From an uncultured virus (IMG/VR IMGVR_UViG_3300024999_000098) (taxonomy: Duplodnaviria; Heunggongvirae; Uroviricota; Caudoviricetes), in IMG/VR virus record IMGVR_UViG_3300024999_000098: DNA of 64,000 bases. The stretch is one strand, 5' to 3'. Both the position numbers and the translations under genes were made by a program. Positions 1,510-32,656 of this stretch are shown piece by piece. Under the pieces are notes generated by a model. The model saw only the letters and a list, made by a program, of their open reading frames with translations. It was not told where the DNA came from and did no database searches. Numbering within the stretch: the stretch's first letter is position 1; every line of letters begins with the position of its first letter.

Positions 1510-2036
1510 ACCCCTCCTTGTTTTATGATGTACTTTTTCGCGCTTGAATTTGTGTCACAGTCTTGAAAACCGAGGCACTGCTCCGCTGCATAGCGGGCAT
1601 AGGCAGCATCGAGAAGGTTGTCGTAATAACCCAAATGCTCATGACATCTGTTTATTGCGATCCTGGCCTCCCACCTACCCCTATCAACCCTCCATCGTAT
1701 GCCTTTTACGCCACAGACATTCCCAATACTTGTACTGCGATTTCTAGCCTGACACCGATGGGACGCCTCTCGCAGATTAATACGGCGGTTGTCTGTCCTC
1801 ACGCGATTACCGTGGTCAACGGTGTTTTCGGGCCAATACCCATCGGTGTAGAGAATGGCTAGGCGACTCGCAAGGTATGCAACCCCACATACTTTAATCT
1901 GAATATACCCATGAGAATCAACGCCACCAGCCTTAGCCCCAGCGGAAATCCCATTGGGTAGGGTTTTGTTCCACGTGAAAATCCCAGTCTCTGGGTTGTA
2001 GTCAAGCACCTCCTTGAGTCGTTCTTGTGTGATCAC
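1503..2036 (-). CDS. HNH (HNH_3)-AP2-like endonuclease, copy 1
   Basis: MITQERLKEVLDYNPETG...VDHGNRVRTDN..NLR...GVKGI.W..W.A.I..HLGYY. Confidence 0.85.
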   Translation of the reverse strand: MITQERLKEVLDYNPETGIFTWNKTLPNGISAGAKAGGVDSHGYIQIKVCGVAYLASRLAILYTDGYWPENTVDHGNRVRTDNRRINLREASHRCQARNRSTSIGNVCGVKGIRWRVDRGRWEARIAINRCHEHLGYYDNLLDAAYARYAAEQCLGFQDCDTNSSAKKYIIKQGGVC

Positions 2037-17479: not shown

Positions 17480-17905
17480 ATGATCAATAAAGTAATCTTG
17501 TTGGGAAACCTTGGTGCAGATCCGGAAATCCGTTACACTGCAGGCGGTACTGCAGTCGCAACCCTGCGGGTGGCAACAACCGAGCAGTGGAAGGATAAGG
17601 ACGGCGAGAAAAAAGAGCACACCGAATGGCACCGCGTGATCGTGTGGGGCCGACTCGGTGAGATCTGCGGCGAGATCCTGGAGAAGGGGTCCAAGGTTTA
17701 TATCGAGGGCAAGAACCAGACCCGCGAGTGGACCGACCAGAATGATGTGAAGAAATACACCACAGAGGTCGTCGCCAAGGAGATGAAGGCCCTGTCGCGC
17801 CGGAAGTCTGAAGGCCAGCACAATCCTGGCGGATCTTCCCCGGATGATTCATTCCCCGAACCGCCCCCAGGCATGACTGGCACAGGCGAAGACGTTCCTT
17901 TTTGA
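17480..17905 (+). CDS. ssb: Single-stranded DNA-binding protein
   Basis: [30 protein letters not shown]; acidic tail EDVPF. Confidence 0.95.
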
Positions 17906-17934
17906 TGTTACAATAAATCGGTAAGGAGTGGGAT

Positions 17935-18192
17935 ATGATCGAGAGATTGACCGCAAAATGGCATGATGCCCCTGTAAAGGCTGTGCCGGTAACCGATGGA
18001 GAGCTGGTTAGGTATGATGATTATCTTGTCCTCTGGAAAGCCCTTTTCAACATTCATCAGGTCTTGAAATTCGTGACTACGGATCTACAGCTGGAGCCGA
18101 ACGAGAAGGGAATGGTTAAGCGGGCGCTCAAGCGCGGCCAGATAACCTTGGATCTGAGGGAGGGGTCGGATTGTGAAGAACCTGAAGTCTAA
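17935..18192 (+). CDS. Hypothetical protein
   Basis: AAGGAG SD; DGELVRYDDY. Confidence 0.55.
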   Translation: MIERLTAKWHDAPVKAVPVTDGELVRYDDYLVLWKALFNIHQVLKFVTTDLQLEPNEKGMVKRALKRGQITLDLREGSDCEEPEV

Positions 18193-18475
18193 CCTGGGAA
18201 AATTGATGCGTGCGCGGGCAGATCATGATAAACTGCCAACTGATCATCTTCTCCGCACACTGGCTGATCGTTTTGACCTTGACCTATGTCGATATATGGA
18301 CCAGCAAGGAAAATGCACTGCTGGGCAATTTTTAGCCTCCTGGGCGAAAGCGAGAAAGGCTTGGTGTGCATATTCTGGCGAGGTTATAGTGGATGTCATG
18401 GCCAGGGATCTCAGTATGAAGATGTGCGATCTTTTTGTAGTGGAACAGGAGGTGAAGTTTGAAGGTAAAAAATAA
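18173..18475 (+). CDS. Hypothetical protein
   Basis: GGAGG SD, GTG start. Confidence 0.5.
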   Translation: MKNLKSNLGKLMRARADHDKLPTDHLLRTLADRFDLDLCRYMDQQGKCTAGQFLASWAKARKAWCAYSGEVIVDVMARDLSMKMCDLFVVEQEVKFEGKK

Positions 18476-18652
18476 ACCTCCCAAGCCGATGATGGGGGCA
18501 GCGCCTGAACCAGATCGGATTTGTTGTTGGTGGTGCCGCCAGCGCAGCCAGATGGTGGGTAAGGATTTACCAGCGGGCTGGCGCTATATTGAGATGGTGA
18601 ATCCAGATTTTCCTGGAGAGCACGCACGGTATTTTTCCTGCGGAGGTGAGAA

Positions 18653-19030
18653 GTGCGGACAGTAGGAAGTGAGATCAGCGCCTGTAAGCAGGTGATCGAG
18701 TTGTGGACCCTGATCAGGGATCTCGATGTCCTGGGTGCGTACCGTAGATTTGAGCTGAAGACTCACGCCTGCGGTATGCTTGGCATGGAACATTATATTG
18801 CCCGCTGCCCATGCTGCGAATTCGACACAAAGGACTGTGAGAGATGTCCGATGGGCGGGTTCTGGCGCGGTGATGGAATAGCCGATGGCGAGTGCATAGG
18901 TGGTATTTTCGGGGTTTGGCAAAGAGCCAGAGGCCATTATGAGAGGGTGGCTGCTGCTGAGGAATTGGTAGAAGCCGCAAGAGAGGCGCTGGCCTATTGG
19001 CAGGCCATGCGCGAAATGAACCAACAGTAG
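18653..19030 (+). CDS. Cys-rich hypothetical protein
   Basis: CPCCE..DCERCP; GGAGG SD. Confidence 0.55.
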   Translation: MRTVGSEISACKQVIELWTLIRDLDVLGAYRRFELKTHACGMLGMEHYIARCPCCEFDTKDCERCPMGGFWRGDGIADGECIGGIFGVWQRARGHYERVAAAEELVEAAREALAYWQAMREMNQQ

Positions 19031-19175
19031 GAGGGTGTATGACGCGGGACGAATTGCTGGAGATCTTGGAGCAGGTAGCAGATGGTGATCTTGATCCGGA
19101 TGAAGCTGTTGACGAGATCTGTGATGGGTGTGATTGTATTGAGTAGGCTGTAAGCAGGAAGTAGTATAGCAGAAG

Positions 19176-19214
19176 AAAGGCCCGTGCCGGTTCGATCCCA
19201 GCACGGGCCTTTTT
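19176..19214. terminator. Bidirectional terminator with T-loop-like apex
   Basis: AAA-GGCCCGTGCCGG-TTCGATC-CCAGCACGGGCC-TTTTT at convergence of the two arms. Confidence 0.8.
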
Positions 19215-19523
19215 ATTAGAATAGCCAGGCGATGAACCTGGCCAGCCATCTGTGATGGATTTTGATATAGATGAACGGTATGTGGCGCATCATGTGGATG
19301 TGCCTGTGCAGAGTCATTTGGTCCTCCCCTTGGTCATGTCCATGTGGACGGTCTTCTGTACCACCGAGGCTTCACCGGAGCGGTGGAACCAGACGGTGCT
19401 GTACTCAGTGAATTCCCCGAGCTTCATTGTGAAGATGCAATTCCACAAGATCCTCGTTGACCTGTACGGTACAAGCGTTCTTTCAATATAATTCATCTCA
19501 CACCTCATGGAATTGCAGCCAGG

Positions 19524-19820
19524 TTATTTTTTAAAGATGAAAGGGAATCCTCCACCTCCGATCAGCATCCCCAGGACCAGCCCGAGGGATGCCAGCTTCT
19601 CAGTCACCAGATCCAGATCAGCCGGATCTCCCGGTGTCTGGAAATTCGTGTTGGGGGTACGCTGGTAGAATTTCTCCATCCCGACATAGGCCTGGACATG
19701 CGGCAGCAACCGGATCGGCACCAGGCCGTCCGATAGCTCGCTACACAGGTCTTTCAGGTGCTCTGGTTTCATACTCCTCGCCTCAAAGGCTGGCGGTCGC
19801 CTTACCGGTAGATCATTCAT
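19524..19820 (-). CDS. Hypothetical early protein
   Basis: GGAGG SD, MNDLPVRR. Confidence 0.55.
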   Translation of the reverse strand: MNDLPVRRPPAFEARSMKPEHLKDLCSELSDGLVPIRLLPHVQAYVGMEKFYQRTPNTNFQTPGDPADLDLVTEKLASLGLVLGMLIGGGGFPFIFKK

Positions 19821-20067
19821 CGTCGTCCTCCCATCCGTATTCATTCGGGTTAAGAATGCGATCGATCGCCTGCCAGTAGGGAAAGCCCTGCGGGGTTTGC
19901 GACCAGCAGAAGCAGGCAGAGAGGTCCAGGTGAGGGTAAAACCCGATGAGCCTATTTTGTGACCGGGGAATAACCGGCGCTTCGTGCAGGAGCCATACAG
20001 ACGCGTCTGGATCGATCTGTGCGACCCGGTCGATCAGCCGCTGGTAGCCTTCATAATATCTTCTCAT
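19813..20067 (-). CDS. Hypothetical early protein (TPQG-motif paralog A)
   Basis: F.WSQTPQG..YW. Confidence 0.65.
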   Translation of the reverse strand: MRRYYEGYQRLIDRVAQIDPDASVWLLHEAPVIPRSQNRLIGFYPHLDLSACFCWSQTPQGFPYWQAIDRILNPNEYGWEDDDE

Positions 20068-20306
20068 TTTTTCCTCCTATACAGCTTCCGTTCGATTTCA
20101 AGCCAGTATTTGTGGCCCTGTGGGGTTTTGCACCAAACAAACGCTGCACACAAGGGGGCATTCTCACACAGGGCGGTATAGTGGTTGCCGGTGTGTCTGC
20201 GGCTCATGATCGGGGCAACGTGCAGCAGGTAGTTTGCCGCGTCGCAGTCGAATTTAGACACAAGGGTGATCAGGGCCTGGTAGTAAGTCCCGTAGTATCT
20301 TCTCAT
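20064..20306 (-). CDS. Hypothetical early protein (TPQG-motif paralog B)
   Basis: Start MRRYYG after GGAGG; F.WCKTPQG..YW. Confidence 0.65.
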   Translation of the reverse strand: MRRYYGTYYQALITLVSKFDCDAANYLLHVAPIMSRRHTGNHYTALCENAPLCAAFVWCKTPQGHKYWLEIERKLYRRKK

Positions 20307-20474
20307 TTGACCTCCACATAGATGATGGTTACCAGGGAGCCATCCCCCTGATCCTTGGTACATGCCGGGAGCATCTCACACAGGGTGATAGTCTCTCGAC
20401 CGACACAGTTACGACATGATCCTGGCCAGACTGGGGCCTCAGCCCTGAATCGCCTGCCCAGGATCTCGATGATT

Positions 20475-20864
20475 TCATTCGACCACATAATAGTCGCCTC
20501 CATCCTTCGTCCAGCCGTCGTGCAACATGGCCTGGTCGACAGTAACGTGCTTCAGGGTGCCAATGGCCTCCAATTTTTCGCCAGCCAGGAAGAACAGGTT
20601 GGCGGTCCTCTTGTGGTTCTTGGGCCGGTTCAGGATCAGGATCGATTCCTGATTATGCTTCCGGCAGAGAGCGGCGACATCCGCGCTGTAGGAGCCGCCC
20701 CAGAGCGCCACATAGCTGGTTTCCTGCTGGCCCTTGTAGGAGCCCAGGACTTTCTTTACAGGAGCGCCGATCTGCTTCTCTACATACTCCTGTTCCTTCT
20801 TACCGAGCTGCGTGTTGACGGCGAAGATGGCCAGCGCCGACTGGCTTTTCAGGAAGCGTTTCAT
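20475..20864 (-). CDS. Hypothetical early protein
   Basis: GSYKGQQETSY...QESIL; 129 aa ORF. Confidence 0.55.
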   Translation of the reverse strand: MKRFLKSQSALAIFAVNTQLGKKEQEYVEKQIGAPVKKVLGSYKGQQETSYVALWGGSYSADVAALCRKHNQESILILNRPKNHKRTANLFFLAGEKLEAIGTLKHVTVDQAMLHDGWTKDGGDYYVVE

Positions 20865-20866
20865 GA

Positions 20867-21070
20867 TCAGATCCCCATGTTGAATGCTTTACGGTTCTGA
20901 GCAAAGCGGAATGTCACCAGGCCATGCTCCTTCGAATCCTTATTCATTGGTCGCCCATCCCAAGGGCTGGAGTAATCATTGATGATGAAGTCTTTGCCCT
21001 GCTCCCATGCTTCAACAACCTCTTTTCTGCTTTTGTAGTCGCGCCCGTAGGCCGGTGTCAAGGTAATCAT
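20867..21070 (-). CDS. Hypothetical early protein
   Basis: LTPAYGRDYKS..V..AW..GKDF; GGAGG SD. Confidence 0.6.
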   Translation of the reverse strand: MITLTPAYGRDYKSRKEVVEAWEQGKDFIINDYSSPWDGRPMNKDSKEHGLVTFRFAQNRKAFNMGI

Positions 21071-21097
21071 GGTGTCCTCCATATATGGAATTGAATC

Positions 21098-21147
21098 GTT
21101 TGACTGCCCATAACCGAGCCCCGTAAGGCCCGGCTATCGAAGGTCAA
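21098..21147 (-). ncRNA. Structured RNA hairpin motif, copy 1
   Basis: 50 nt, 36/50 identical to 22444..22493 with compensatory changes. Confidence 0.65.
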
Positions 21148-21459
21148 TACTCGTTAATCATATCTCCCCAAGGCCCGCGATAGAGTGCGACCAGGCGATC
21201 CGGGTGATTCTCTCCGAGATCCAAGGCCACATCCATCATGAAGAAGCTGGTTTCAAGACCTATCGAAACACCAGCCTCAGTCCACATTGTCAACATCATA
21301 AGCATCATCATACCGGTCCCTCCCCGAGAATTCTTGTGAGCCTGATGAATTTCTTGTAATTGAGCTTACGAATGGCGCTGGCAATCATCCATTCGTAGAG
21401 CCCATTACCAGATTTACCAGACCGTTCCCATTGCCACACCATCATTGCGAAAGTCATGG

Positions 21460-21639
21460 TTACCTCCTGATCAGATCGCAGCCGATATAGGCCTCTGCTA
21501 CGTGGACATATTCCCGCCCCATGTTCCAGACCAGGCCGGTGTCAACAAGCATCTGGAACAGGGCGGTGATTTCATCTTCGTCCATCATACCATTTTCGTA
21601 GTATGATATCAACGTCGTGAGTTCTTTTTCGATTTCCAT
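21460..21639 (-). CDS. Small hypothetical early protein
   Basis: Hand-translated 59 aa: ..YENG.MDEDEITALFQMLVDTGLVW.. Confidence 0.55.
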   Translation of the reverse strand: MEIEKELTTLISYYENGMMDEDEITALFQMLVDTGLVWNMGREYVHVAEAYIGCDLIRR

Positions 21640-22046
21640 ACCGGTTCCGGCAGCTCCTCAAATACTGCCTCTCCATTAGAAAAGTGACCAATCAGCCGGT
21701 GGGTTCCGAAGACCTTGAGGAAATTCTCTTCGACCCGTTCCATAAACTTGACTGCCATTGGGGTATTGCGACCGCCGACAGGGGTCATCCAGATCGCGAT
21801 CTGTCCGCAGTATTCGCTGATCCCAACCCAGCAGAGCTTATTCTGGGCCAGTGCATGATACTCCCGGCCCAGCCACCGATTCACCTTGATGAACGACGGC
21901 CAGCGGTGCAGGGTTTCGGCCTGGATGAAATCGATCAGGTCGTCAAACCGGTCGCTGATATCATCTTCGGACTCTTCGTCGGCCCAGTCGGACCAGATCT
22001 GAAAGGCTACCAGGCTATCCATTGGATACGCTACGCTTCTTGACAT
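21609..22046 (-). CDS. Hypothetical early protein
   Basis: AGGAGG SD, MSRSVAYP; GHFSNGEAVF. Confidence 0.6.
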   Translation of the reverse strand: MSRSVAYPMDSLVAFQIWSDWADEESEDDISDRFDDLIDFIQAETLHRWPSFIKVNRWLGREYHALAQNKLCWVGISEYCGQIAIWMTPVGGRNTPMAVKFMERVEENFLKVFGTHRLIGHFSNGEAVFEELPEPVWKSKKNSRR

Positions 22047-22050
22047 ATCT

Positions 22051-22260
22051 CTACCTCCTACCATGAGTGAGGTCGTCGTATTCAGCACCGAGCATACCGA
22101 TGATTTTGACGACTTTATAATACTTCCGGCCTGCGTTTACCCCAAAACCTTTTTCCGCATCTTCGCGTGTTGCGTAGATCTTGCCAGTGGTTTTGTGTAG
22201 ATCGCAGTAAGTGTTTCCATCCGCCCTCTTGACCATTAATACATAGAATTCACATGCCAT
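22051..22260 (-). CDS. Hypothetical early protein
   Basis: AGGAGG SD. Confidence 0.55.
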   Translation of the reverse strand: MACEFYVLMVKRADGNTYCDLHKTTGKIYATREDAEKGFGVNAGRKYYKVVKIIGMLGAEYDDLTHGRR

Positions 22261-22269
22261 AATAACCTC

Positions 22270-22428
22270 CTAGAATGAAAAACGTATCTTCAGCGCCCTC
22301 TCAGAAGCGTTCATGATGAAGTGAATAACCTCTTCCAGATCAGCTTCTTTGTCGGCATATCTCTGCCAGTGTTTCTTGACATACAAGATAAAGTCAATCC
22401 TGTTGTATGGTGGTGGCTTGATTTCCAT
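22270..22428 (-). CDS. Hypothetical early protein
   Basis: GGAGG SD, MEIKPPPY. Confidence 0.5.
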   Translation of the reverse strand: MEIKPPPYNRIDFILYVKKHWQRYADKEADLEEVIHFIMNASERALKIRFSF

Positions 22429-22443
22429 ATTGAACCTCCATAG

Positions 22444-22493
22444 GTTTAATTGCCCATGGCAAGGCCCCGTGAGGCCAAGCCATCGAGAGTTAA
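22444..22493 (-). ncRNA. Structured RNA hairpin motif, copy 2
   Basis: See copy 1; lies just upstream of ATGGAGG SD. Confidence 0.65.
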
Positions 22494-22723
22494 CTCCGTG
22501 CTGCCTTTTCCTTGATGCGGCGAAAGGCGATGTTCCAGGTTGAGCCCATGCCATAGAAGGACGGCCCGGACCCGGAGATCTCGGGGTGAGCCCAGCAGGT
22601 AACCTGGACCCCTTCCTTGCTGACCTTGGTATCGTAGTAAACCTGATAGCCAGGGAATTCGATTTCCATGGATACAAACCGTGCGATCTCGATACTGGTC
22701 TTACTTCTAAGATAGGTTCTCAT
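22490..22723 (-). CDS. Hypothetical early protein
   Basis: ATGA-coupled ORF. Confidence 0.5.
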   Translation of the reverse strand: MRTYLRSKTSIEIARFVSMEIEFPGYQVYYDTKVSKEGVQVTCWAHPEISGSGPSFYGMGSTWNIAFRRIKEKAARS

Positions 22724-22887
22724 GATGCCTGCTCCTTTTTGGGTTGAATATTACAGGTCACGTAGCCATGTCTCCGGAGCCGTTCTTCTGCTTCCGGGGT
22801 TTCGGCTATTACGTATGACCAGAAACGCTCGGGCCAACCAGTCCGTCCGTAGCACATCCTCTTCGGTTGATATTCTGTCTTTTCCAT
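22720..22887 (-). CDS. Hypothetical early protein
   Basis: AAGGAG SD, MEKTEY. Confidence 0.5.
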   Translation of the reverse strand: MEKTEYQPKRMCYGRTGWPERFWSYVIAETPEAEERLRRHGYVTCNIQPKKEQAS

Positions 22888-22906
22888 GATGCTCTCCTTA
22901 AGATGA

Positions 22907-23007
22907 ATGGGCGGTCCCAGGTCCGTGTCCCTGAGATCTCCTTCCGGTCCTCCGCGTCTGCAGTCGCTCGGGCCAGTCGGCGCATTACCGATTATGCTGC
23001 CGCCCAT
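22907..23007 (-). ncRNA. Cloverleaf/tRNA-like intergenic RNA
   Basis: 8-bp closing stem ATGGGCGG/CCGCCCAT; D-arm-like GCAT-AATCGGTA-ATGC; TCTCAGG/CCTGGGA arm. Confidence 0.5.
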
Positions 23008-23011
23008 AGTG

Positions 23012-23509
23012 TTATACTGCAATCAGCCTCTCGCCGCAGCGAGTGCATTTGTATTCCTGCTTGCCAGCCACCACCCGGTTGTGCCGGATCGAGGTGAGCT
23101 CGACAGTCCTGCAGGAGCACTTGTAGGTGTGGCGCTTCTTCTCACATACCTGAACCTTGCTGACATCGTAATGATGGGTCCGCTCGGGTGAGAGGCCCGC
23201 GTCCATCATCATGCACTGCCAGCGGTGACCGTGGTTGCTGGTGCCGAAGATACAGGCTTCTACGTGATGCACTGCCTCATGGCCGGGTGTCCTTTTGACG
23301 AATTTCTCGCCTTCCTGAAAGAGAAGGTCGCGGTTCAATTTTATTTCCCTGCCGTTCGCCTGGCCAGCACATTTGCCGCGCTTGTCGAAAGTGATCGCTG
23401 GCCGGGGAATCATCCGGCAGTATTTATTCTCAAAATATCGTGTCACGCGCTCGATTTCCGCGTGACACATACTGATCAGCTGTCCTCTTAACCACTGTTC
23501 GTTATCCAT
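23012..23509 (-). CDS. SprT-like Zn metalloprotease
   Basis: AGQA, HEAVH, HG..W..M, YKCSC, H, YKCTRC. Confidence 0.85.
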   Translation of the reverse strand: MDNEQWLRGQLISMCHAEIERVTRYFENKYCRMIPRPAITFDKRGKCAGQANGREIKLNRDLLFQEGEKFVKRTPGHEAVHHVEACIFGTSNHGHRWQCMMMDAGLSPERTHHYDVSKVQVCEKKRHTYKCSCRTVELTSIRHNRVVAGKQEYKCTRCGERLIAV

Positions 23510-23511
23510 GG

Positions 23512-23886
23512 TTATCTCCTTGGAAATTTTTCCTTTACACTGTGGCTTTCCTTCCACTCCTGTGCCAAGTGATACCACTTGTCGTCACGGTCGCTCACAA
23601 CCTCCGGATGGATCTCATAACAGGTCCGGTAACCGGAATAGGATTTGAGATATTCGAAGGCCTCCTCCGGAGTGCTGAAGTAGTTTTCTGCATACTTCAT
23701 ATCGACCGATCTCCCGAAGGTGAAGTCGCTACCGTAATCCACGAAGGTCATCCGTTTTTCTCCGCATGAGTCAATTGTCCGCTCAACAACCATGCAGAGT
23801 GCGATGTCGTCTTCGCCGGTCTTGTAGATCATTGAGATGTTCCCCGAGGCCCTGTAGACCTTCTGTCCTTTCTTGAATTTCGCCAT
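23512..23886 (-). CDS. Hypothetical early protein
   Basis: GGAGG SD, MAKFKKGQKV. Confidence 0.6.
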   Translation of the reverse strand: MAKFKKGQKVYRASGNISMIYKTGEDDIALCMVVERTIDSCGEKRMTFVDYGSDFTFGRSVDMKYAENYFSTPEEAFEYLKSYSGYRTCYEIHPEVVSDRDDKWYHLAQEWKESHSVKEKFPRR

Positions 23887-23897
23887 GGTGTCCTCCA

Positions 23898-24158
23898 TTA
23901 ACTGAGTTCATCAATTTGCTTCTTCAGATCGACAATGTCCATCTGCTTTAAGTAGATCATCCTCTCAAGCTCCTCGACTTTTTCCGCCCGAGGGAGCATG
24001 TCGTGAATTACCGTCATACCGAAGCGGGTGTAGATGTCGGCTATGTCCTGTTTATACTTCATTGCCGGGTGAAACGTGTAAACCTTCTCGATAACCTTGT
24101 AATCCTCTTCCGAGACGCTGGCTATTTTTGCCCGTGCTGTGAATTCATGCATCATCAT
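23898..24158 (-). CDS. Hypothetical early protein
   Basis: AGGAG SD; 86 aa. Confidence 0.6.
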   Translation of the reverse strand: MMMHEFTARAKIASVSEEDYKVIEKVYTFHPAMKYKQDIADIYTRFGMTVIHDMLPRAEKVEELERMIYLKQMDIVDLKKQIDELS

Positions 24159-24169
24159 AATTTCGCTCC

Positions 24170-24361
24170 TTAGAAGGTGAATCCGAAGTAGACTTCCTTG
24201 TCGGCCTTGATGAAGATCTCCGTGTTGTGGTCGAACCAGCAGGTACAGGAAAAGCTCTTCGTTGCCCTGTCGTAATGGCCCTTGGTAAAGACCATCTGGC
24301 TGTTCTCTTTGCGCTTGATGAATTCGCCCTTCTTCAGGTGCCTGATCGCGATCTTATCCAT
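24170..24361 (-). CDS. Hypothetical early protein
   Basis: LKKGEF..R..V..KGHYDR..K.FSC..F.D. Confidence 0.6.
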   Translation of the reverse strand: MDKIAIRHLKKGEFIKRKENSQMVFTKGHYDRATKSFSCTCWFDHNTEIFIKADKEVYFGFTF

Positions 24362-24372
24362 AATCCCCTCCG

Positions 24373-24474
24373 TTACTTTCTATTCATTTCCCATCTGTCC
24401 CATAACCAGCAACAGAACCATACAACAGCCATCATTGCCAAAGCGATGGCGAATTCAATAAAGAATGTAAACAT
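24373..24474 (-). CDS. Small membrane peptide, first ORF of early transcript
   Basis: Hand-translated 33 aa MFTFFIEFAIALAMMAVVWFCCWLW..; GGAGG SD. Confidence 0.45.
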   Translation of the reverse strand: MFTFFIEFAIALAMMAVVWFCCWLWDRWEMNRK

Positions 24475-24490
24475 GATGCCCTCCAAAAAT

Positions 24491-24579
24491 TGCTACTCCC
24501 GGCAGGATTCGAACCTGCATCCAATGGCCTACTAAGCCAACGGCAGACCCCTTTGAACTGCCTCAAGGTGTCGGGAGCA
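24491..24579 (-). ncRNA. Non-canonical tRNA-like element
   Basis: Acceptor-like TGCTCCCG/CGGGAGTA; perfect T arm GCAGG-TTCGAAT-CCTGC; D and anticodon arms non-canonical; no encoded CCA. Confidence 0.7.
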
Positions 24580-24584
24580 TATCT

Positions 24585-24643
24585 TGTGTTTTCGACCATT
24601 CTCTGTGGTCATCGTCAGCGGTGCGAAGAAGCACCGGAACACA
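24585..24643 (-). ncRNA. Type III hammerhead ribozyme
   Basis: UGUGUUC^CGGUGC-UUCUUC-GCACCG-CUGACGA-U-GACCA-CAGAGAA-UGGUC-GAAA-ACACA: three stems plus CUGANGA/GAAA/UH core. Confidence 0.88.
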
Positions 24644-24751
24644 TATCGCCTGGCGAAGGGGCCTGATTGCCTGCTCCGCCTTAAGGGTTCTCGATTAACC
24701 TCCCCCTGTTGCTTCCGGCCTCTCTCCGGGTCGTCCTCTGCCTTCACCTAT

Positions 24752-24857
24752 ATCGTAATACCAAAACACCAGGGAGTCAAGGGTATTTTGTAATATTTTT
24801 AATATCGAGTGAAATCGGTGGAGTATGGTTGCATAAAAAGAATTGATGCTTTATATT
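24752..24857. promoter_or_regulatory. Divergent promoters (early leftward; rightward toward terminase)
   Basis: Minus: TTGACT-17-TACGAT (24780..24752); plus: TTGCAT-17-TATATT (24829..24857). Confidence 0.65.
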
Positions 24858-24922
24858 AGTAAACATGCGACCAGGAGTCTCCATAATAGTATGGGGCGGG
24901 CCTGGCGATTGGCTCTTTTTGG

Positions 24923-25231
24923 GTGATTATCATGGAGGCGACAAAAAAAGGATTACAAGTTTACCTGGGAGTTCGGCTGCTTAAGCATCTGATCAAAAAC
25001 CACCCGGCTGTCGGAGAAATGGGCATGACGGTGGAGGTCACAGACTGGGATGCATTTTTTTCTGACATAGCTAAAGCCCTGTGGACAGTGACAAAAGACG
25101 CTGACTCTCCCATGCATCGCGCCATCCATGATGCCGTCCTTTTGGCACTTGACAAGTCAAAACACGCCGCAATGGTCGATAATGACAGTGATATCCTCGA
25201 CTTGGTCGATTTTATGGAGCAGAACGCATGA
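24923..25231 (+). CDS. Hypothetical protein
   Basis: First ORF of rightward arm; start uncertain. Confidence 0.5.
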   Translation: MIIMEATKKGLQVYLGVRLLKHLIKNHPAVGEMGMTVEVTDWDAFFSDIAKALWTVTKDADSPMHRAIHDAVLLALDKSKHAAMVDNDSDILDLVDFMEQNA

Positions 25232-25590
25232 CCGGTGTCCTTCATGAGCTGAAGAAGTTATTTGTTAGGAGCCCTGGCTGGAATAAAGTCCGCAGGGCTC
25301 GTATCAAAGGCGACGGAAGTAAATGTCAGGCATGTGGTCGGACCCGCAACCTGCAGGTTCACCATGTCCTCCCCGTTCACCTGTTCCCCTGGTTGGAACT
25401 GGCCATCACCAATCTGATTACATTATGTGGCCCGTGCCACCTGTTCCTTGGCCATCTCAATCATTGGCAAGCCTATAATCCGAACATAAGGGCGCTGGCC
25501 CGGCATATGAGAACCATGATCCTCAATCGCTGGGATAAGCTCCGCACCATGGAATCTGAAGCTGATCAGGAGAAGCAATGGCAAAAGTGA
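25228..25590 (+). CDS. HNH endonuclease (Zn-binding McrA-like type, unrelated to the five AP2 copies)
   Basis: CQACG...VHH..P...NLITLCGPCH; upstream of terminase. Confidence 0.8.
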   Translation: MTGVLHELKKLFVRSPGWNKVRRARIKGDGSKCQACGRTRNLQVHHVLPVHLFPWLELAITNLITLCGPCHLFLGHLNHWQAYNPNIRALARHMRTMILNRWDKLRTMESEADQEKQWQK

Positions 25591-25756
25591 CGATTGTTGT
25601 CGAGGATTGTGAAGGTGATGAACTGGTGAGAGTCCGGATGGAATATGACCCACCGATCCCTGGTGCTGTCGCTGCTGCAGATCTTACGTGCGCTCAATTA
25701 TTGGGACTGCAGTTCATGCAGGACTATGGTATTCAACCTCAAAAAACCACAGTGCA

Positions 25757-25960
25757 ATGATGAACAAGCTCTGCTACCAGTGTGTACATTATGAGCTGAC
25801 GAGATGCCGAAGGCCTGGCGCAGATACCGTCTGCCTTGTCAATGGCTATCACACATATCCACTGTGCGAAGTTGAGCGGGAATTCGGTGCATTCCTCTCA
25901 CGCATTGTAGGAAGATGCGGCCAAGAAGGACGGTATTATGACTTCAAAGGAGATCACTGA
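25757..25960 (+). CDS. Cys-rich hypothetical protein
   Basis: CYQCVHY..C..C..ER..CG.EG.YY. Confidence 0.55.
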   Translation: MMNKLCYQCVHYELTRCRRPGADTVCLVNGYHTYPLCEVEREFGAFLSRIVGRCGQEGRYYDFKGDH

Positions 25961-26160
25961 TGCTCGATATCTATGATGACAGAAAAACTGGTACGCTGGT
26001 ACGCTGGTTGTGCGAAGCAGAGCATACCAATACCGGCGATAAACTCGTTGTGTACTGCTATCAGAACGACCCGGCAGACGTTAAGGCGATGGATGCATCC
26101 GACTTCCACCGGCAGTATCAATTGAGGCTGGATTGTGTTCTGCTGGAGGGAGTAAAATGA
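25960..26160 (+). CDS. DUF1653-like protein
   Basis: AEHTNTGDKLVVY..F pattern. Confidence 0.45.
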   Translation: MLDIYDDRKTGTLVRWLCEAEHTNTGDKLVVYCYQNDPADVKAMDASDFHRQYQLRLDCVLLEGVK

Positions 26161-26558
26161 AAGGCAAAGGTATTCAGGTTACAAATAAGGCCTATCGAGA
26201 TGGATACGAGCGCACGTTCAAGAAGCCCACTCTTTTGGAGAAAATGAGAACTGCAACTGATGAGCTTGAGCGGAATAGCGAGATCCCTTCTCTCTTGGAT
26301 AGCCTGAGAGATGTAAACTCATACACCAAGGAAGAGCTGAACAAGCACTTCCACCTGGCAGACTTCGTTGCCCTGCGTGATGGTGAATGGACTGAAGAGA
26401 AGGTCTACGCTATCACCAACGAAGAGATCACTGATCCAGGTTCATGGGTAAAGGCCAGGTTCATCGAAAAGACTGAGGTCTGTGTAGAGAATATCGATAC
26501 CAAGCCACTGATGGAGAGCTGGGTTCTCGATATCAATCACTTCGAAGGACTCGATTAA
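26157..26558 (+). CDS. Hypothetical protein
   Basis: GGAGG SD; NKAYRDGYERTF. Confidence 0.55.
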   Translation: MKGKGIQVTNKAYRDGYERTFKKPTLLEKMRTATDELERNSEIPSLLDSLRDVNSYTKEELNKHFHLADFVALRDGEWTEEKVYAITNEEITDPGSWVKARFIEKTEVCVENIDTKPLMESWVLDINHFEGLD

Positions 26559-26559
26559 G

Positions 26560-27189
26560 ATGGCAGGCGCAAGACACGACTGGCAATTACTTGAGGAGGA
26601 CTGGAGAAGAAACGAGAAGAGCCTGGCCCAGATGGCAGAGGACTATCTCAGGTTGACAGGTAAGAAGATATCGCGCAATGCGATCCAGAAGCACTTCAGG
26701 GATCAACCTCGCGATCTTGCGAAGAAAATTAAAGCAGCGACTGAACGGAAAGTGGTCGAAGCTAAACGTAAGTTGACAGAGGTCGAGGCCAAGGTGACAA
26801 AGGCCCGTCGTAAGTTGACAGACAAGGATATTGTCGAAGCACGTAGCGACGTAATTGCCCGAATTCGCACGGAACAAGAGGATGATGCAACCGATAACCG
26901 ACGCTTCATTTCCGATGTCCTGGCCGAGGTTAAGAAAGCATATCATGAGCCTGAGAAGCTGGTTGAACTGGTTGGAATGATTAACGAAGAGCATCCTGAC
27001 TACGTGCTGGTGACCAGGCAATTCGAAAAGCTCATTGCACTTGGCGAGATGGTTGACATTCTGAAGAAGCTGATGGAGCTCTGGATCAAGCTGGCCGAGG
27101 CCGAAGCACGGATCTACGGCATTGATAAGGCCGATGGTGACAAGGGAGTCTGGACCGTGCGGTTGACCGAAGACGAGGCTAACCTGTGA
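26560..27189 (+). CDS. Terminase small subunit (putative)
   Basis: DW..LE.DWR N-terminal HTH-like; directly upstream of TerL. Confidence 0.65.
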   Translation: MAGARHDWQLLEEDWRRNEKSLAQMAEDYLRLTGKKISRNAIQKHFRDQPRDLAKKIKAATERKVVEAKRKLTEVEAKVTKARRKLTDKDIVEARSDVIARIRTEQEDDATDNRRFISDVLAEVKKAYHEPEKLVELVGMINEEHPDYVLVTRQFEKLIALGEMVDILKKLMELWIKLAEAEARIYGIDKADGDKGVWTVRLTEDEANL

Positions 27190-28571
27190 TCAAGACCTAC
27201 GACGCACCTTCAGCCGAGAATCCCGACTTCAGGCTCACGCCGAAGCAAGTCGAAGCACAGCACCTGATCGCCACACCGGGCATTTCGGACATCCTTCTCT
27301 ATGGTGGAGCTCGTAGCGCCAAGACGTTTCTGATCTGCCGGACCATCGCCATCCGGGCCATGAAATCGCCCTTCTCCCGGCACGCGATCATGCGCTACCG
27401 GTTCAACCATGTCAAGCAGTCAATCATCCTGGATACATGGCCGAAGATGATGCGGCTGTGCTTCCCCGGTGTCAAGTGTCATATCGATAAGTCCGACTGG
27501 TACGCGCAGTTCCCGAACGGAGCACAGGTATGGTTTGGTGGCCTGGACGAGGGCGAGCGCCTGGAGAAGCTCCTGGGTATGGAGTATGTAACCATATTCC
27601 TGAATGAGTGCAGCCAGATATCACTACAGGCCCGTGAGACGATGATCACCCGGCTTGCCCAGAAGGTCTATCAGGAGGTCGAGGGGAAAGGCCTGCGGTT
27701 GCTGGTGCCGAAGATGTTCTACGACGAGAACCCACCTTCGAAAGGCCATTGGTCTTACAAGATGTTCATTCAGAAGATGAAGGCTGACAAGCGGGAAACA
27801 CTCGCACATCCGGAGCGTTACGCCGTCATGCAGATGAACCCGAAAGACAACCTGGCCAATCTGTCGCCCGACTTCATGGAGAAGCTGGATGCCATGACAG
27901 CCAGGATGCGCCTGCGGTTCAGGGATGGTGTGTTCAGCGAGATCGTAGAGAACCAGCTCTTTGACGATGTGAAGATCGAGACATACAGGGTGGTTAATGA
28001 CATCGATGTACCCGACATGGTCAGGATCGTAGTGGCGGTTGACCCGTCCGGATCTGGCGACGAGGAAAACGCGAAGAACGACGAGATCGGTATTGTCGTG
28101 GCCGGGCTCGGGATCGATGGCCTTGGATATCTCCTGGCGGACTGTACTGTCAAGGCAGGGCCTGCTACATGGGGCAAGGTGGCCACTGATTCGTTCGAAC
28201 GCTTCGAAGCCAATACCATCGTAGCAGAGCAGAACTTCGGTGGCGCTATGGTCGAACGCGTGATCCAGGTCACCAGGCCAAGAACACCATATAAGGCCGT
28301 CACTGCATCCCGAGGTAAACAGGTCAGGGCCGAACCCATCGCCGCACTGGTAGAGCTGGGGAAGATCCGGCACGTAGGCTATTACCCATTGCTGGAGGAC
28401 GAGCTGGTGCAGTTCACCACCAACGGCTACCAAGGCCCGAACAGCCCGAACCGTGCTGATGCCTATGTGTGGGCATTCACAGAGCTTTTCGGTGCAATCG
28501 TGAAGAAGGTCAAGAAGAACCAGGCCGTCATGCCGCCGCGTGTCCCGCTGGATCGAGGCGTGGGGTACTGA
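27186..28571 (+). CDS. terL: Terminase large subunit
   Basis: YGGARSAKT Walker A; NP motif; VAVDPS, AEQNFGG, K..RAEP, PNRADA nuclease motifs. Confidence 0.92.
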   Translation: MIKTYDAPSAENPDFRLTPKQVEAQHLIATPGISDILLYGGARSAKTFLICRTIAIRAMKSPFSRHAIMRYRFNHVKQSIILDTWPKMMRLCFPGVKCHIDKSDWYAQFPNGAQVWFGGLDEGERLEKLLGMEYVTIFLNECSQISLQARETMITRLAQKVYQEVEGKGLRLLVPKMFYDENPPSKGHWSYKMFIQKMKADKRETLAHPERYAVMQMNPKDNLANLSPDFMEKLDAMTARMRLRFRDGVFSEIVENQLFDDVKIETYRVVNDIDVPDMVRIVVAVDPSGSGDEENAKNDEIGIVVAGLGIDGLGYLLADCTVKAGPATWGKVATDSFERFEANTIVAEQNFGGAMVERVIQVTRPRTPYKAVTASRGKQVRAEPIAALVELGKIRHVGYYPLLEDELVQFTTNGYQGPNSPNRADAYVWAFTELFGAIVKKVKKNQAVMPPRVPLDRGVGY

Positions 28572-28694
28572 TGTTAGGCATGGTTTGTACTGAGCCCGTA
28601 TTTTTGGAGACACCGCGACACGGAAGCCCCGTGATTGCTGGTTGGTTAATTTATTTGCTAGGCAGCAAAATGGAGCATACTGTGGAGGTAATTG

Positions 28695-31223
28695 ATGGCT
28701 AGGAAGCAGACTGATGTGGAGCGGGACACCGAAGACCGCATGTACGAGGAAGAGGAAGCGAGCCTCCTGGCAAGCGAGGAAGATCTCGACTCGGTTGTGT
28801 CCGGTAAGAACGTACTGGAGGACGATGCGACAGAGGGCGCTCCGGAAGGCGCGATCCACTCCGTACTGAGCGAAGCTGATGAGGCCGAGCTGGCCATGAT
28901 CGAGGAAGAGGCCGTCATGACCGTAGCTCAATCGATCCTCACGACACGCAGCGAGGCAGTCGAGTGGCGGGCCATGTCCGGGGTCGAACTGTGGTGGAGG
29001 ATCAGCGAGGAGCTGCTGGACTATACCACAGATCTCCCGGCCTACAGCACGATGATGGACTATGTGTCCGGCAACGCACCGATCAAGCAGACCGGCGAGG
29101 TAGCCCGCAGCAAGGCCGTCATGAACATCATCCGGGGCCGGTGCGAGGTAGCGCAGGGCAGGATCGAAGATATCCTCTTCCCGGTGTTCGCAAAGAACTA
29201 CGGTTTCAAGGTCACGCCGAGGCCTGAAGTAGCCCAGATGAAGGGCGACATGAGCCCGGCAGTCGGACCCAAGGGAGAGCCGATCCAGTTCACGAACGGA
29301 CAGCCTGCAGCCCTGAATGATGTCTACAATGAGCTGATGGTACGAGCCACCGGGGCCATGGCCAAGATGGAACAGATCGTGGATGATCAGCTCACAGAGT
29401 GTCAGTACAACGAAGAGGCCAGGAAGGTCATCTCCCGAGCCGTCCGTATGGGCACCGGCATCATCAAAGGCCCGTGCGCTTCGAAGAAGCTCCGCAGGAT
29501 CTGGAACCCCACCAAGGACAAGAAGGGCAAGCTGGTCCACATCCTTGAGTACAAGCAGGACAACAGGCCCATCTCCAAGGAGATCGATCCCTGGAACCTG
29601 TACCCAAGCCCTGACTGTGGCGACGACCCGCAGAAGGCAGCGTACTTCTGGGAGAAGGACACCATGCGTGTTGCCGAGGTGCAGCGCCTTATCGGTCAGC
29701 CTGGGTACTCAGCCCGGCAGCTTGAGCTGGTCCTGGGAGAGCAGCCGAAGCGCCTGAACGTGGCCCAGGATCAGCACGCGAATGCTTTCAAAGTCCGGGT
29801 CGAGAACGCCCAGCGCGGTGAGCTGTATGAGGTATGGGAGTACAACGGCAACGTCCGGCCCGACTTCCTGGAGATCCTGAACTGCAAATGCACAGGCGAC
29901 AAGCCGGTCAGCGCCCGCGTCATCTTCATTAATGATCACCCGGTCAAGGCAGATCTCAACCTGCTGGACACTGGTGACAACCTCTATGATTTCTTCCCTT
30001 GGTCGCCCATAGATGGATTGCCATGGGGTGCAGGCGAACCCATGAAGATGGCCTGGGCTCAACGGATCATCAACGCCGCATGGAGGCAGATGCTGGATAA
30101 TGCTGGTGATTCATCCGGCAGCAACGTCGCCATCAAGGGCATTGAACCGGCTGACGGCATCTGGGAATTGACAGGCAAGAAGCTGTGGAAGTGGGACGGC
30201 GACACCGACTTCGATGACATCAGGAAGGCGATCACCTCGTTCCAGACCACCAATAACCAGGCAGACTTACAGAATATGTTGGAGCTGGCCTTGCGATTTG
30301 TGGATCTCATGACTGCAACTCCAACCATCTTCCAGGGGGAAGCTCAAGAAGCCCCTGAGACGTTGGGAGCCACGAACATCGTGGTTGACAGTTCCAACAT
30401 CACCTATCGTTCCAAGGTCAAACTGTGGGATGATCGTGTCACCGTTCCCCACCTGAGACGGTATTACGACTACAACATGCAGTATCATCCTGATCACAAA
30501 GCGAAAGGAGACTTCGACGTTGACCCACGCGGAGCGTCTATTCTCTTCGAAAAGGACCAGATGCGGCAGATGCTCCTCACGGTCTGGCAGATGAAGGCAG
30601 ATCCGGACATCCTCCGCAGGACCGACTGGGATAAGGCTGTCGAACAGCTCTATGCCAGCGCCCATTTGGATATCCTGAAGCCGAAGGAAGAGCAGGGCGA
30701 AGGCCAGCCGCAGGCACCGGCAGATCCGGCAGCAGCCGCCAAGCAGGCCCAGCAGCAGGCCGCAATCGAGGTTGCCAAGATCCGCCAGGCCACTGAGATG
30801 GACAAGGCCAAGCTGGTCCAGGATGCAACCATGCAGGAGCTGCAGTTCAAGGCCCAGCAGGCAGAGATGGAACGGGGCCATGATCTGAAGATGAAAGAGA
30901 TGGACCTTCAGATCCGCATGATGGAATATTCCGAGAAATCCAAGATAGAGCTTTCAAAACTGAAAGTGCAGCTGGCCATCTCCGCTGAAGGGATGAACCT
31001 GCAGCAGAACCTGTCTGAGAAGAGCGCAGCGCAGACCGACGAGCTGGATGCCAGGGATAAGGCCCATAGCGACATCCAGGGCGACAAGCAGTCTGAACGC
31101 GATGAACGGAAGATGGACAAGCAGGGAGAGCAGCAGGCGCGGCAGATCGTAGCAAAACAGGTAGCCACTCCACCCACTGAGCCAGCAGGTAGAGCACCAG
31201 CCGGGCAGGCATACCCGAGATAA
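28695..31223 (+). CDS. Portal protein
   Basis: Follows TerL; GTGIIKGP, IDPWNLYP.P, WG.G, ETLGAT; helical C-terminal barrel typical of podovirus portals. Confidence 0.8.
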   Translation: MARKQTDVERDTEDRMYEEEEASLLASEEDLDSVVSGKNVLEDDATEGAPEGAIHSVLSEADEAELAMIEEEAVMTVAQSILTTRSEAVEWRAMSGVELWWRISEELLDYTTDLPAYSTMMDYVSGNAPIKQTGEVARSKAVMNIIRGRCEVAQGRIEDILFPVFAKNYGFKVTPRPEVAQMKGDMSPAVGPKGEPIQFTNGQPAALNDVYNELMVRATGAMAKMEQIVDDQLTECQYNEEARKVISRAVRMGTGIIKGPCASKKLRRIWNPTKDKKGKLVHILEYKQDNRPISKEIDPWNLYPSPDCGDDPQKAAYFWEKDTMRVAEVQRLIGQPGYSARQLELVLGEQPKRLNVAQDQHANAFKVRVENAQRGELYEVWEYNGNVRPDFLEILNCKCTGDKPVSARVIFINDHPVKADLNLLDTGDNLYDFFPWSPIDGLPWGAGEPMKMAWAQRIINAAWRQMLDNAGDSSGSNVAIKGIEPADGIWELTGKKLWKWDGDTDFDDIRKAITSFQTTNNQADLQNMLELALRFVDLMTATPTIFQGEAQEAPETLGATNIVVDSSNITYRSKVKLWDDRVTVPHLRRYYDYNMQYHPDHKAKGDFDVDPRGASILFEKDQMRQMLLTVWQMKADPDILRRTDWDKAVEQLYASAHLDILKPKEEQGEGQPQAPADPAAAAKQAQQQAAIEVAKIRQATEMDKAKLVQDATMQELQFKAQQAEMERGHDLKMKEMDLQIRMMEYSEKSKIELSKLKVQLAISAEGMNLQQNLSEKSAAQTDELDARDKAHSDIQGDKQSERDERKMDKQGEQQARQIVAKQVATPPTEPAGRAPAGQAYPR

Positions 31224-31232
31224 GGAGATATT

Positions 31233-31736
31233 ATGGGATTACCAGAGTTTATTGCAGACTTTTTCAGGCCAGCCAACAAGGAAGAGATCACCGAGATCCC
31301 GCCTTCAACCGAACCCCTGATCGAGGGCACGACCCCGAGGCCTGGCGACATCACTGACACGCCGCCCGTCGCCAACCATCCCGTCCCGGATCTCGTAGCC
31401 CTGGCAAAGAAGCACGGCCTGGAGTCGATGGCCAAAGTCCTAGAGGAAAAGATCTCCCTGGCCCAAGTAGCCATGGCCGACAAAGACTATGCCAAGGTCA
31501 CCCAGATGCTTGAGGCCGAGAAGCCCCTCATTATTGGTAATCCAACAATTCCGGTACTTGATACAAATTCCCCGACCTGGCAATGGATCGTAATTTGGGC
31601 CACCGAGGAACTTGACAAATCAAGGAAATTGAATGATAGTATCATTAGAACTGATAAAGACACCGCAGTTCTTCGCGGAGAGATCAAAAGACTGAAGGAA
31701 ATACTTGCATTACCAGAAAAATTGGCCGGGAAATAA
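31233..31736 (+). CDS. Hypothetical head-module protein
   Basis: TAVLRGEIK.LK.IL.L C-terminus. Confidence 0.55.
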   Translation: MGLPEFIADFFRPANKEEITEIPPSTEPLIEGTTPRPGDITDTPPVANHPVPDLVALAKKHGLESMAKVLEEKISLAQVAMADKDYAKVTQMLEAEKPLIIGNPTIPVLDTNSPTWQWIVIWATEELDKSRKLNDSIIRTDKDTAVLRGEIKRLKEILALPEKLAGK

Positions 31737-31780
31737 CCGCCCGTAGACTGTCCACCCGGAAGGCTGGAAAGGAGTAGTGA

Positions 31781-32656
31781 ATGGCAGTAGAAAACGAGCA
31801 GGACAAGGCAGAACGCGAAGAGCGTGAATTGTACGCAGAGGTCAACGCTGAGATCTACGGTCAACAGGAAGTAACGGAAGGTGTAACCGATGAGTTACCC
31901 CCGGTCGTTACGCCCGAGGCCAGCACCGAAGTCATCGATCCATGGGCAGGAACGAGCCCAGCCTTACGGCAAATGATGGAAGGGATCAGTAACAGGATGG
32001 CCGACCTGGATGCAATGAACGACAGGTTGAAGCAGGCAGAGCGCAGGGTTGGAAGTCTCAACAACAAGCTCTCCGCAGCACCCGCAATGCCCAAAGCACC
32101 GACCGCCGAAGAAATCGCACAGGCTGCAGAATCCGATGAGAAACTGCAGGAGTTTTTGCGTGACTTCCCGGTCCATGCAGAAGGCATTCAAGCTCTGATC
32201 AACAAGAAGCTGCAGGCCCAGGGGACTGGGGTTCCGGTGGAAGAGATCGAGCGAATGCGGGCCGAGTTGCAAACCGACTTCGACCAGAAACTTGACACTG
32301 CCCAAAAGGGTTACGAACTGAAGCTGCTTAAGTCCAAGTACAAAAATCATCGTGAGATCGCCCTTTCACCCGAGTTTACCGGCTGGATCGAGACACAGGA
32401 TGAAGAGACAAAGACGAAGGCAGGCGGATGGAACGCCCTGGATGGTATTGAGGTTCTCGACAGGTTTTTTGAGAGCCGTAAAGCGAAGAACGATCTGCCC
32501 GATATCACGGGCGAACGAGAGGCCCGTTTGGATTCTGCTGCTGCCGACACTCGGAACACCAGCCGGAACAAACCGGTACGACAAAAAACAGTGGCTGAGA
32601 TGAATGAAGCAGAGCTTTATGATTACGAAGCCAAGAAGATATGGGGGAAACAATAA
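31781..32656 (+). CDS. Scaffold protein (putative)
   Basis: Acidic, helical, directly before capsid. Confidence 0.6.
   Translation: MAVENEQDKAEREERELYAEVNAEIYGQQEVTEGVTDELPPVVTPEASTEVIDPWAGTSPALRQMMEGISNRMADLDAMNDRLKQAERRVGSLNNKLSAAPAMPKAPTAEEIAQAAESDEKLQEFLRDFPVHAEGIQALINKKLQAQGTGVPVEEIERMRAELQTDFDQKLDTAQKGYELKLLKSKYKNHREIALSPEFTGWIETQDEETKTKAGGWNALDGIEVLDRFFESRKAKNDLPDITGEREARLDSAAADTRNTSRNKPVRQKTVAEMNEAELYDYEAKKIWGKQ

Follow-up and report, generated by a model that had tools for sequence, protein, structure and literature searches.

The DNA examined here, referred to as the window, is a 64,000-nt contig of an uncultured tailed phage, with small and large terminase genes at 26560-28571 and the gene for the major head protein at 32641-33696, together with genes for a primase, a helicase, a YqaJ recombinase and very large polyvalent proteins. 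The sequencing runs that contain it are all DNA metagenomes, from groundwater and soil, with no RNA run listed among them, and a search of the INPHARED phage genomes returned no match to 24300-25000 in distant mode or to 20000-32000 in near mode. For the 1846- and 867-residue proteins, an identity as N4-like virion RNA polymerase was rejected, as Pfam assigned the polyvalent-protein domains LPD38 and InPase.

A divergent control region spans 24362-24922, with its plus side leading to an HNH gene and the terminase genes and its minus side to a tight row of small ORFs, mostly without an assigned function. The first of these (24373..24484, minus strand) has a GGAGGG Shine-Dalgarno at 24484..24479 and runs from an ATG at 24474 to a stop at 24373, encoding a 33-residue hydrophobic peptide; in the ORF list its start is TTG 24486, and here we chose the ATG behind the Shine-Dalgarno. 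At ~19148..19295 a GC-rich hairpin bordered by runs of A and T (GGCCCGUGC...GCACGGGCC) surfaced as weak Thr-leader matches on both strands, and this is probably a bidirectional terminator that ends the leftward operon. We infer that the operon is an 'early' one from its small ORFs of no known function, which lie behind a sigma-70-like promoter.

This promoter is located on the minus strand at 24752..24780 and is composed of TTGACT (-35), a 17-nt spacer and TACGAT (-10), which would place the transcription start near 24745. A pattern scan scored it 9/12, and such a match is by itself not above chance, with 4 sites in the region compared with 2.0 expected. By eye, the relatives described below all have a TTGAC(A/T/C) box and a -10-like hexamer at the same place, separated by a spacer of different sequence. 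The initial annotation had put the promoter ~110 nt upstream of a hammerhead motif on the transcribed strand, and we measured this distance (from 24780..24752) at 109 nt. Likewise, its placement of the motif in a transcript leader fits with the strand, the promoter, and the Shine-Dalgarno and ORFs downstream.

The motif itself, at 24585..24643 on the minus strand, is a predicted type III hammerhead ribozyme, which we evaluated by direct reading, folding, a descriptor scan, a blind covariance model and covariation. Every element that had been listed from the sequence alone was found at 24643..24585. Stem III is formed by UGUGUU and AACACA (24643..24638 and 24590..24585) and includes the A15.1-U16.1 pair (U24638-A24590), and it is followed by C17 (24637), the last residue of a UUC triplet, with the cut predicted between 24637 and 24636. 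Stem I pairs CGGUGC with GCACCG (24636..24631 and 24624..24619) around a UUCUUC loop and leads into the core CUGACGA (24618..24612; C3 U4 G5 A6 N7 G8 A9), which is followed by one extra U (24611) between A9 and G10.1. Stem II pairs GACCA with UGGUC (24610..24606 and 24598..24594) around a CAGAGAA loop, opening with G10.1-C11.1 (G24610-C24594), and GAA (G12 A13 A14; 24593..24591) completes the core. All 13 conserved core positions are intact, and the residue at position 17 is a non-G, with a triplet that follows the NUH rule for hammerhead cleavage.

On their own the 59 nt adopt exactly this three-way junction, with modest stability (-18.3 kcal/mol, z -1.95; 11 of 200 shuffles are as stable), and all three helices are present in the minimum free energy fold, where loops cap stems I and II and stem III is open (6, 5 and 6 pairs, respectively, by the descriptor). 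As both capped stems lack free binding arms, the idea of one such ribozyme cutting many matching sites in trans was rejected on structural grounds. In a transcript running from the predicted start to 60 nt beyond the motif, the hammerhead is also the minimum free energy fold with a mean pair probability of 0.89. If the transcript stops at the last base of the motif, an alternative fold is favoured by 3.1 kcal/mol and the mean pair probability of the hammerhead is 0.29. Hammerhead folds of the relatives lie 0-4.1 kcal/mol from their own minimum. Tertiary contact of loop II with loop I or a stem I bulge is what permits rapid cleavage of hammerheads at low Mg2+, and the further observation that loop I (UUCU) is complementary to loop II (AGAA) holds, with four Watson-Crick pairs (five with a G-U). 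However, this pairing is not kept in the relatives, which have 1-3 pairs, and although it reaches p 0.04 against uniform random loops it gives p 0.39 against shuffles of the same loops. As far as sequence can tell, the loop-loop complementarity is real but not distinctive, and contacts of a non-Watson-Crick kind are beyond its reach.

We scanned both strands of the window (128 kb) with a type III descriptor that specified a CTGANGA or TTGANAA core, 0-1 inserted base after A9, and stems I, II and III of at least 4, 3 and 4 pairs, and this copy, with 17 stem pairs, was the one match. When the window was shuffled 300 times with dinucleotides preserved, a descriptor match turned up in 7 shuffles (11-15 pairs), and in none did it have 17 pairs or more. 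A type I/II descriptor match at 22427..22285 (143 nt; stems of 4, 2 and 3 pairs) is inside coding sequence and was put down to chance.

Among the loci fetched around terminase relatives, L006, whose terminase is 92% identical, has the leader in common with the window at 89% identity as far as 24651 and nothing thereafter, and it has a differently spelled type III hammerhead at the equivalent place. The leader also contains a 22-nt box (GGGGGAGGTTAATCGAGAACCC; 24685..24706, minus strand), and searching with its cores retrieved 7 viral loci (18-nt core) and 14 metagenome loci (20-nt core), giving 21 loci in which the 20-nt core is identical, from at least 18 contigs that are distinct by name and length. 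A type III hammerhead is present 46-56 nt past the box in 20 of these 21 loci, or in 21 of 22 counting the window, with the cleavage site 66-76 nt after the box start; the exception is L091, where the sequence ends 38 nt after the box start.

Parsing of the window and the 21 loci, with the core pattern relaxed to admit A6G, yielded eight distinct hammerhead sequences that fall into four deep classes. The window copy, with its core CUGACGA and extra U, is the first class. The second comprises L078/79/86, L080/83/87 and L088 and has the core UUGAUAA, in which C3-G8 is replaced by U3-A8. The third is made up of L072/73/77/81/82 and L075/85 (core CUGACGA) and L074/76/89/90/92 (core CUGGCGA), while the fourth is L084, with the canonical core CUGAUGA. 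Stem I is spelled CGGUGC, UGCUUG, UUUGAUU/UCUGAUU or UGCGAUU and stem II is spelled GACCA, GGCC or GCCC, and this respelling of the stems around a kept core is visible by eye in the parsed loci.

A search against the Rfam hammerhead models with cmscan, which the initial annotation had suggested as a check, did not report the window copy at the gathering score or below it. No Rfam hammerhead was detected in the window at gathering, at E≤10 in 24300-24900 (601 bases) or at E≤5 in 17500-25500, and the window copy falls outside RF00008 (Hammerhead_3; gathering 48.5 bits). This model has the same secondary structure and core as the copies described here, and it gave significant sub-gathering scores for L072 (41.7 bits), L084 (38.6 bits) and L076 (38.2 bits), aligning with the relatives' copies end to end (model positions 1-54 of 54), compared with a window copy that went unreported at E≤10. 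It did not match the copies of the U3-A8 relatives, and no leader type III copy in this phage lineage reaches its gathering score. The Rfam miss is a limit of the curated model and is not decisive on ribozyme status.

We also built a covariance model (R1) from an alignment (A2) of seven distinct relatives with a hand-written structure, leaving the window out. With default filters R1 detected nothing in the window, and with filters off it returned 24645..24583 (28.1 bits, E 1.3e-5), aligned along the whole of the model and treating the extra U as an insertion. The runner-up in the 64-kb window scored 10.7 bits (E 1.6), and the hammerhead copy was the only significant match.

The window and the seven relatives were then fitted to the model (alignment A3), replacing a MAFFT-only alignment (A1) that was discarded with the window copy misaligned. 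A3 is fitted to the structure, its rows are related, and seven of the eight had served to build the model. Within these limits, pairing holds in 97.7% of its 128 cells, and compensatory changes on both sides are seen for 12 of 16 pairs. By stem, the double changes affect 5 of 6 pairs in III, all 6 in I and 1 of 4 in II. As controls, none of 500 shuffles reached any of the five measures, and sliding the partners by 1-3 columns reduced pairing to 30-45%. A lack of covariation in homologous phages had been named at the outset as grounds for rejecting the ribozyme, and the 12 double-changed pairs of A3 show that stems I-III do covary.

Leader identity between the window and L006, L078, L083, L086 and L088 is 87-89% as far as 24651/24652. 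There, 8-9 nt short of the motif, similarity to the relatives stops, and it is not regained until 23015. Furthermore, contigs from short-read assembly break and branch at 24651, where depth changes from ~10 to 100-400. The end of similarity and the assembly branching therefore place the ribozyme at the point where exchangeable cassettes adjoin a conserved promoter-leader module. In the relatives the ribozyme is followed by a Shine-Dalgarno and an ATG within 14-22 nt, and the first ORF differs among phages that have the same leader and the same ribozyme.

We consider it likely that this locus contains a genuine type III hammerhead in the 5' leader of a leftward operon (~24745 to ~19200) that is driven by a host-type sigma-70 promoter, and that it cuts itself as proposed. 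The motif, its structural conservation and its position are supported by the sequence, and cleavage in vivo and its consequence are what we infer. After transcription had passed stem I, stem II and the 3' strand of stem III, the RNA would fold into the three-way junction, and the 2'-OH of C24637 would attack the adjacent phosphate and split the transcript in two. The first product would be a leader RNA of ~109 nt (24637..24745, minus strand, given the predicted start) that carries the invariant 22-nt box and ends in a 2',3'-cyclic phosphate at C24637, and the second would be a message starting with a 5'-OH and the stem I hairpin. Such a cut would uncouple the conserved promoter-leader module from the freely exchanged cassettes downstream. 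The message would gain a defined, hairpin-capped 5'-OH end insulated from the leader, with translation of any cassette likewise insulated, and as a poor substrate for 5'-end-dependent decay it may be degraded more slowly.

Hammerheads in phage leaders are already in print (PMC3088659; Perreault et al. 2011), and the arrangement described here does not change what is known of hammerheads or of phage transcription. In the accessible part of that paper, multiple hammerheads are described as flanking single genes or short gene blocks in prophages. As in the window, these have the same catalytic motif at intergenic or leader sites in polycistronic transcripts, sometimes with several per operon, and they include natural U3-A8 cores and slow A6 variants, both of which recur in the window's lineage. 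The window copy differs in its U inserted after A9, which is not among the variants in the accessible part of PMC3088659, in being below Rfam detection, and in its place at the edge of a conserved leader that gives way to exchangeable cassettes. Type II hammerheads beside phage-origin genes are reported to cleave in vivo in Desulfovibrio vulgaris (PMC8782182, accessible part).

The HHphage hammerhead of haloviruses HF1/HF2 is also similar in that it belongs to the leader of a polycistronic early transcript and is only a few nt upstream of the first ORF. It is reported to lie 13 nt before the first early ORF, with the transcript 5' end mapped within 3 nt of the cleavage site, compared with the 14-22 nt before the ATG in the relatives here (PMC3088659, accessible part). 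However, HHphage is an archaeal-virus variant, whose structural analogue HHmeta is described as needing very high Mg2+ (PMC3088659). The window differs further in having an 85-nt tRNA-like element inserted between the ribozyme and the first ORF. The same placement is seen in RiboJ, an engineered cis-cleaving hammerhead-type insulator between the promoter/5' leader and the ribosome-binding site, which strips off the variable RNA upstream of it so that the 5' end is capped by a hairpin. Whereas RiboJ was engineered for this, insulator logic in the phage is suggested by position alone, and the location at a module boundary fits the idea of phage ribozymes as natural insulators or processing points.

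It is possible, though on balance unlikely, that the main job of the ribozyme is instead to form the 3' end of the leader, with the ~109-nt leader and its box serving as a functional small RNA that could target RNA polymerase, the ribosome or a host factor; cleavage would be the same and the other product would matter. The box argues for this, as it is identical in 21 of 21 loci despite changes elsewhere in the leader and in all three ribozyme stems, and the element conserved beside the ribozyme is the leader and not the first gene. GGGGGAGGTTAATCGAGAACCC contains a Shine-Dalgarno-like GGAGG and could form a GGUU/AACC hairpin, and it occurs once per genome: there is a single copy per related locus, with the leader around it otherwise diverged, and one copy in the window even when 3 mismatches are allowed, compared with none in 100 shuffles. 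However, the leader (24637..24745) matches no Rfam family and its consensus fold is weak (RNAalifold -5.65 kcal/mol, with 0 compensatory pairs), the box likewise has no Rfam family or supported fold, and its invariance could equally reflect a DNA-level site, with nothing to tie it to a target. A search for the box in one genome per prokaryote species gave 0 matches and it therefore provides no clue to a host or prophage.

Returning to the predicted hammerhead, the extra U at 24611 is unique to the window copy among the parsed loci; scanning viral contigs for the exact pattern of its own stem II and core gave 0 matches, and no second copy with a U insertion was found. The initial annotation had noted that single-nucleotide insertions after A9 occur in natural hammerheads, and this is documented for the CChMVd (+) viroid hammerhead, which likewise has one extra nucleotide between A9 and G10.1 (PMC3705267, accessible part). 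There, the extra A10 is described as moderately lowering the trans-cleavage rate, C or G as harmful, and U as 3-4-fold faster (PMC3705267), in work that reviews attribute to De la Pena & Flores 2001 (PMC3705267, PMC1636495, accessible parts). The settings differ in that CChMVd is a rolling-circle viroid RNA whose natural residue is A, whereas the window is a DNA phage mRNA leader in which the residue is U. This viroid hammerhead, assayed in trans, is the only support for tolerance of the insertion. As CChMVd stays active with its natural insertion after A9, we did not treat strict core adjacency as defining, and the U of the window may be tolerated likewise.

Core variation is also present in the sister lineages. 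The U3-A8 replacement of C3-G8 is, in the accessible text of PMC3088659, a natural covariation already proven active in vitro. The A6G core (CUGGCGA) occurs in L074, L076 (1567-1624, plus strand), L089, L090 and L092, in at least three contigs from different samples, and this lineage also shows a strengthening of stem I from U-G to C-G. By analogy with an A6C phage hammerhead variant described as having low activity (PMC3088659), the A6G lineage is probably a slow cleaver, and as changes at A6 give low activity, fast cleavage would therefore not be strictly kept in every lineage. The U insertion of the window, together with the U3-A8 and A6G cores of its sisters, forms a compact natural series for studying tolerance of core variation, and the window adds a well-supported, predicted natural hammerhead that current Rfam models miss.

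We consider it unlikely that the window copy is a hammerhead-derived relic, made slow or dead by the extra U (or, in a sister lineage, by A6G) and with its 5'-UTR hairpins kept to stabilise or shape the message. The restriction of the extra U to the window copy, the rejection of this copy by Rfam models, the persistence of A6G in at least three contigs of another lineage and the slow phage variants on record (PMC3088659, accessible part) would all fit with such a relic. However, 13 of 13 core positions, the A15.1-U16.1 and G10.1-C11.1 pairs and the NUH triplet remain intact, and a role as hairpins only would not fix CUGANGA...GAAA while every stem was respelled; an insertion at this position, of U especially, is moreover compatible with activity in CChMVd (PMC3705267, accessible part). 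That the motif is a chance resemblance to the hammerhead consensus within an ordinary untranslated region is extremely improbable and, so far as sequence analysis goes, already refuted: although 7 of 300 shuffled windows held some descriptor match, these had at most 15 stem pairs compared with 17, 20 of 21 related loci have the same architecture, with covarying stems, at this place in their leader, and the window-blind R1 found the window copy.

Between the hammerhead and the first Shine-Dalgarno there is an 85-nt tRNA-like element (24494..24578, minus strand) that is seen only in the window phage among the loci compared. It has a perfect 7-bp acceptor (GCUCCCG/CGGGAGU) with discriminator A and no CCA, a 10-nt connector (2 nt in tRNA), a D-like hairpin (GCAG/CUGC) in an aberrant D region, an anticodon-like arm (UUGGC-UUAGUAG-GCCAU, with UUAGUAG as the loop), a 5-nt variable loop and a canonical T arm (GCAGG-UUCGAAU-CCUGC; GGTTCGAATCC). 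The Rfam tRNA model scored 20.5 bits (gathering 29; E 0.13) over 24547..24494 only, with the anticodon arm deleted. ARAGORN called no tRNA at 24578..24494 with default settings, and with lowered thresholds it called a 78-nt 'tRNA-Thr(AGU)' with a poor, mismatched acceptor stem. The fold z of the element is -0.90, for 24575..24489, which leaves out the first 3 nt of the acceptor stem. The element thus falls short of a cloverleaf with standard connectors that tRNA models detect at normal thresholds, and is tRNA-like only.

A variant copy of this element was found on one low-depth contig (run X2), with other flanks and a broken anticodon-like stem, and longer stretches of the element gave 0 and 0 matches in viral contigs. 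The 25-mer formed by the T arm and acceptor is present in 19 genomes from many phyla, and 7 of 11 scanned loci had tRNA calls, which at the match itself were tRNA-Arg or tRNA-Leu, with two tRNA-His and a second Leu nearby. These 25-mer matches hold no information on the host or on the origin of the element. If RNase P were to recognise the tRNA-like element, the message might, speculatively, be trimmed a second time.

Further downstream in the leftward operon, a 125-nt intergenic element (22887..23011, minus strand) is formed by a closing helix (AUGGGCGG/CCGCCCAU) with inner hairpins, and is flanked by a 188-residue ORF (23578..23012), with a HEAVHH motif that we take to be metalloprotease-like, and a 55-residue ORF (ATG 22886). 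The element is 93% identical in L078 and L080 despite differing flanking ORFs, and 23011..22887 matched no Rfam family. An ops/JUMPstart identity was rejected with a match at chance level (12.5 bits, E 3.5), and a viral contig (L112) that matched a 20-mer of the element was dropped, its surrounding sequence being unrelated.

In sister phages, predicted type II hammerheads were identified in L072 (837-900, minus strand; 44.5 bits) and L076 (2183-2246, plus strand; 46.9 bits), where the Rfam gathering score is 37, and the motif is likewise present in L073, L075, L077, L081, L082, L085, L089, L090 and L092. In L072 it comes after the second ORF's stop codon and before the Shine-Dalgarno of the third ORF, with the leader hammerhead ~500 nt upstream on the same transcript. 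The 23011..22887 element occupies a stop-to-Shine-Dalgarno slot, as does the type II hammerhead of these sister phages, and therefore could be a new processing element; by this analogy, it could even be a new self-cleaving RNA. The invariant leader box and the 125-nt intergenic RNA carry more novelty than the hammerhead. A broader view, which we hold only tentatively and think rather unlikely, is that the leftward operon is a set of exchangeable cassettes joined by conserved non-coding 'junction' RNAs, of which the hammerhead would be one kind, with the leader and 23011..22887 as undescribed functional RNAs, and the same low probability applies to a processing or self-cleaving role for 23011..22887.

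More distant terminase relatives (L008-L071; 33-64% identity) had no type III hammerhead in the fetched flanks, except for a minimal match in L062. Among these, L045 (terminase 64% identical) has no ribozyme match in its leader and only the first leader hairpin in common with the window (CCCGGAGGGAGGCCGG). At ~60-205 (minus strand), in the place of the hammerhead, it has a ~26-bp long-range inverted repeat around ~85 nt, which is possibly an RNase III-type site. Just upstream and on the other strand is a normal tRNA (442-514, plus strand; anticodon CAU; 54.8 bits). In L084, an int-alpA RNA (RF02996) was detected at 1750-1816 (minus strand) with 45.5 bits, compared with a gathering score of 35.8, and is located on the same strand as the leader, ~900 nt upstream.
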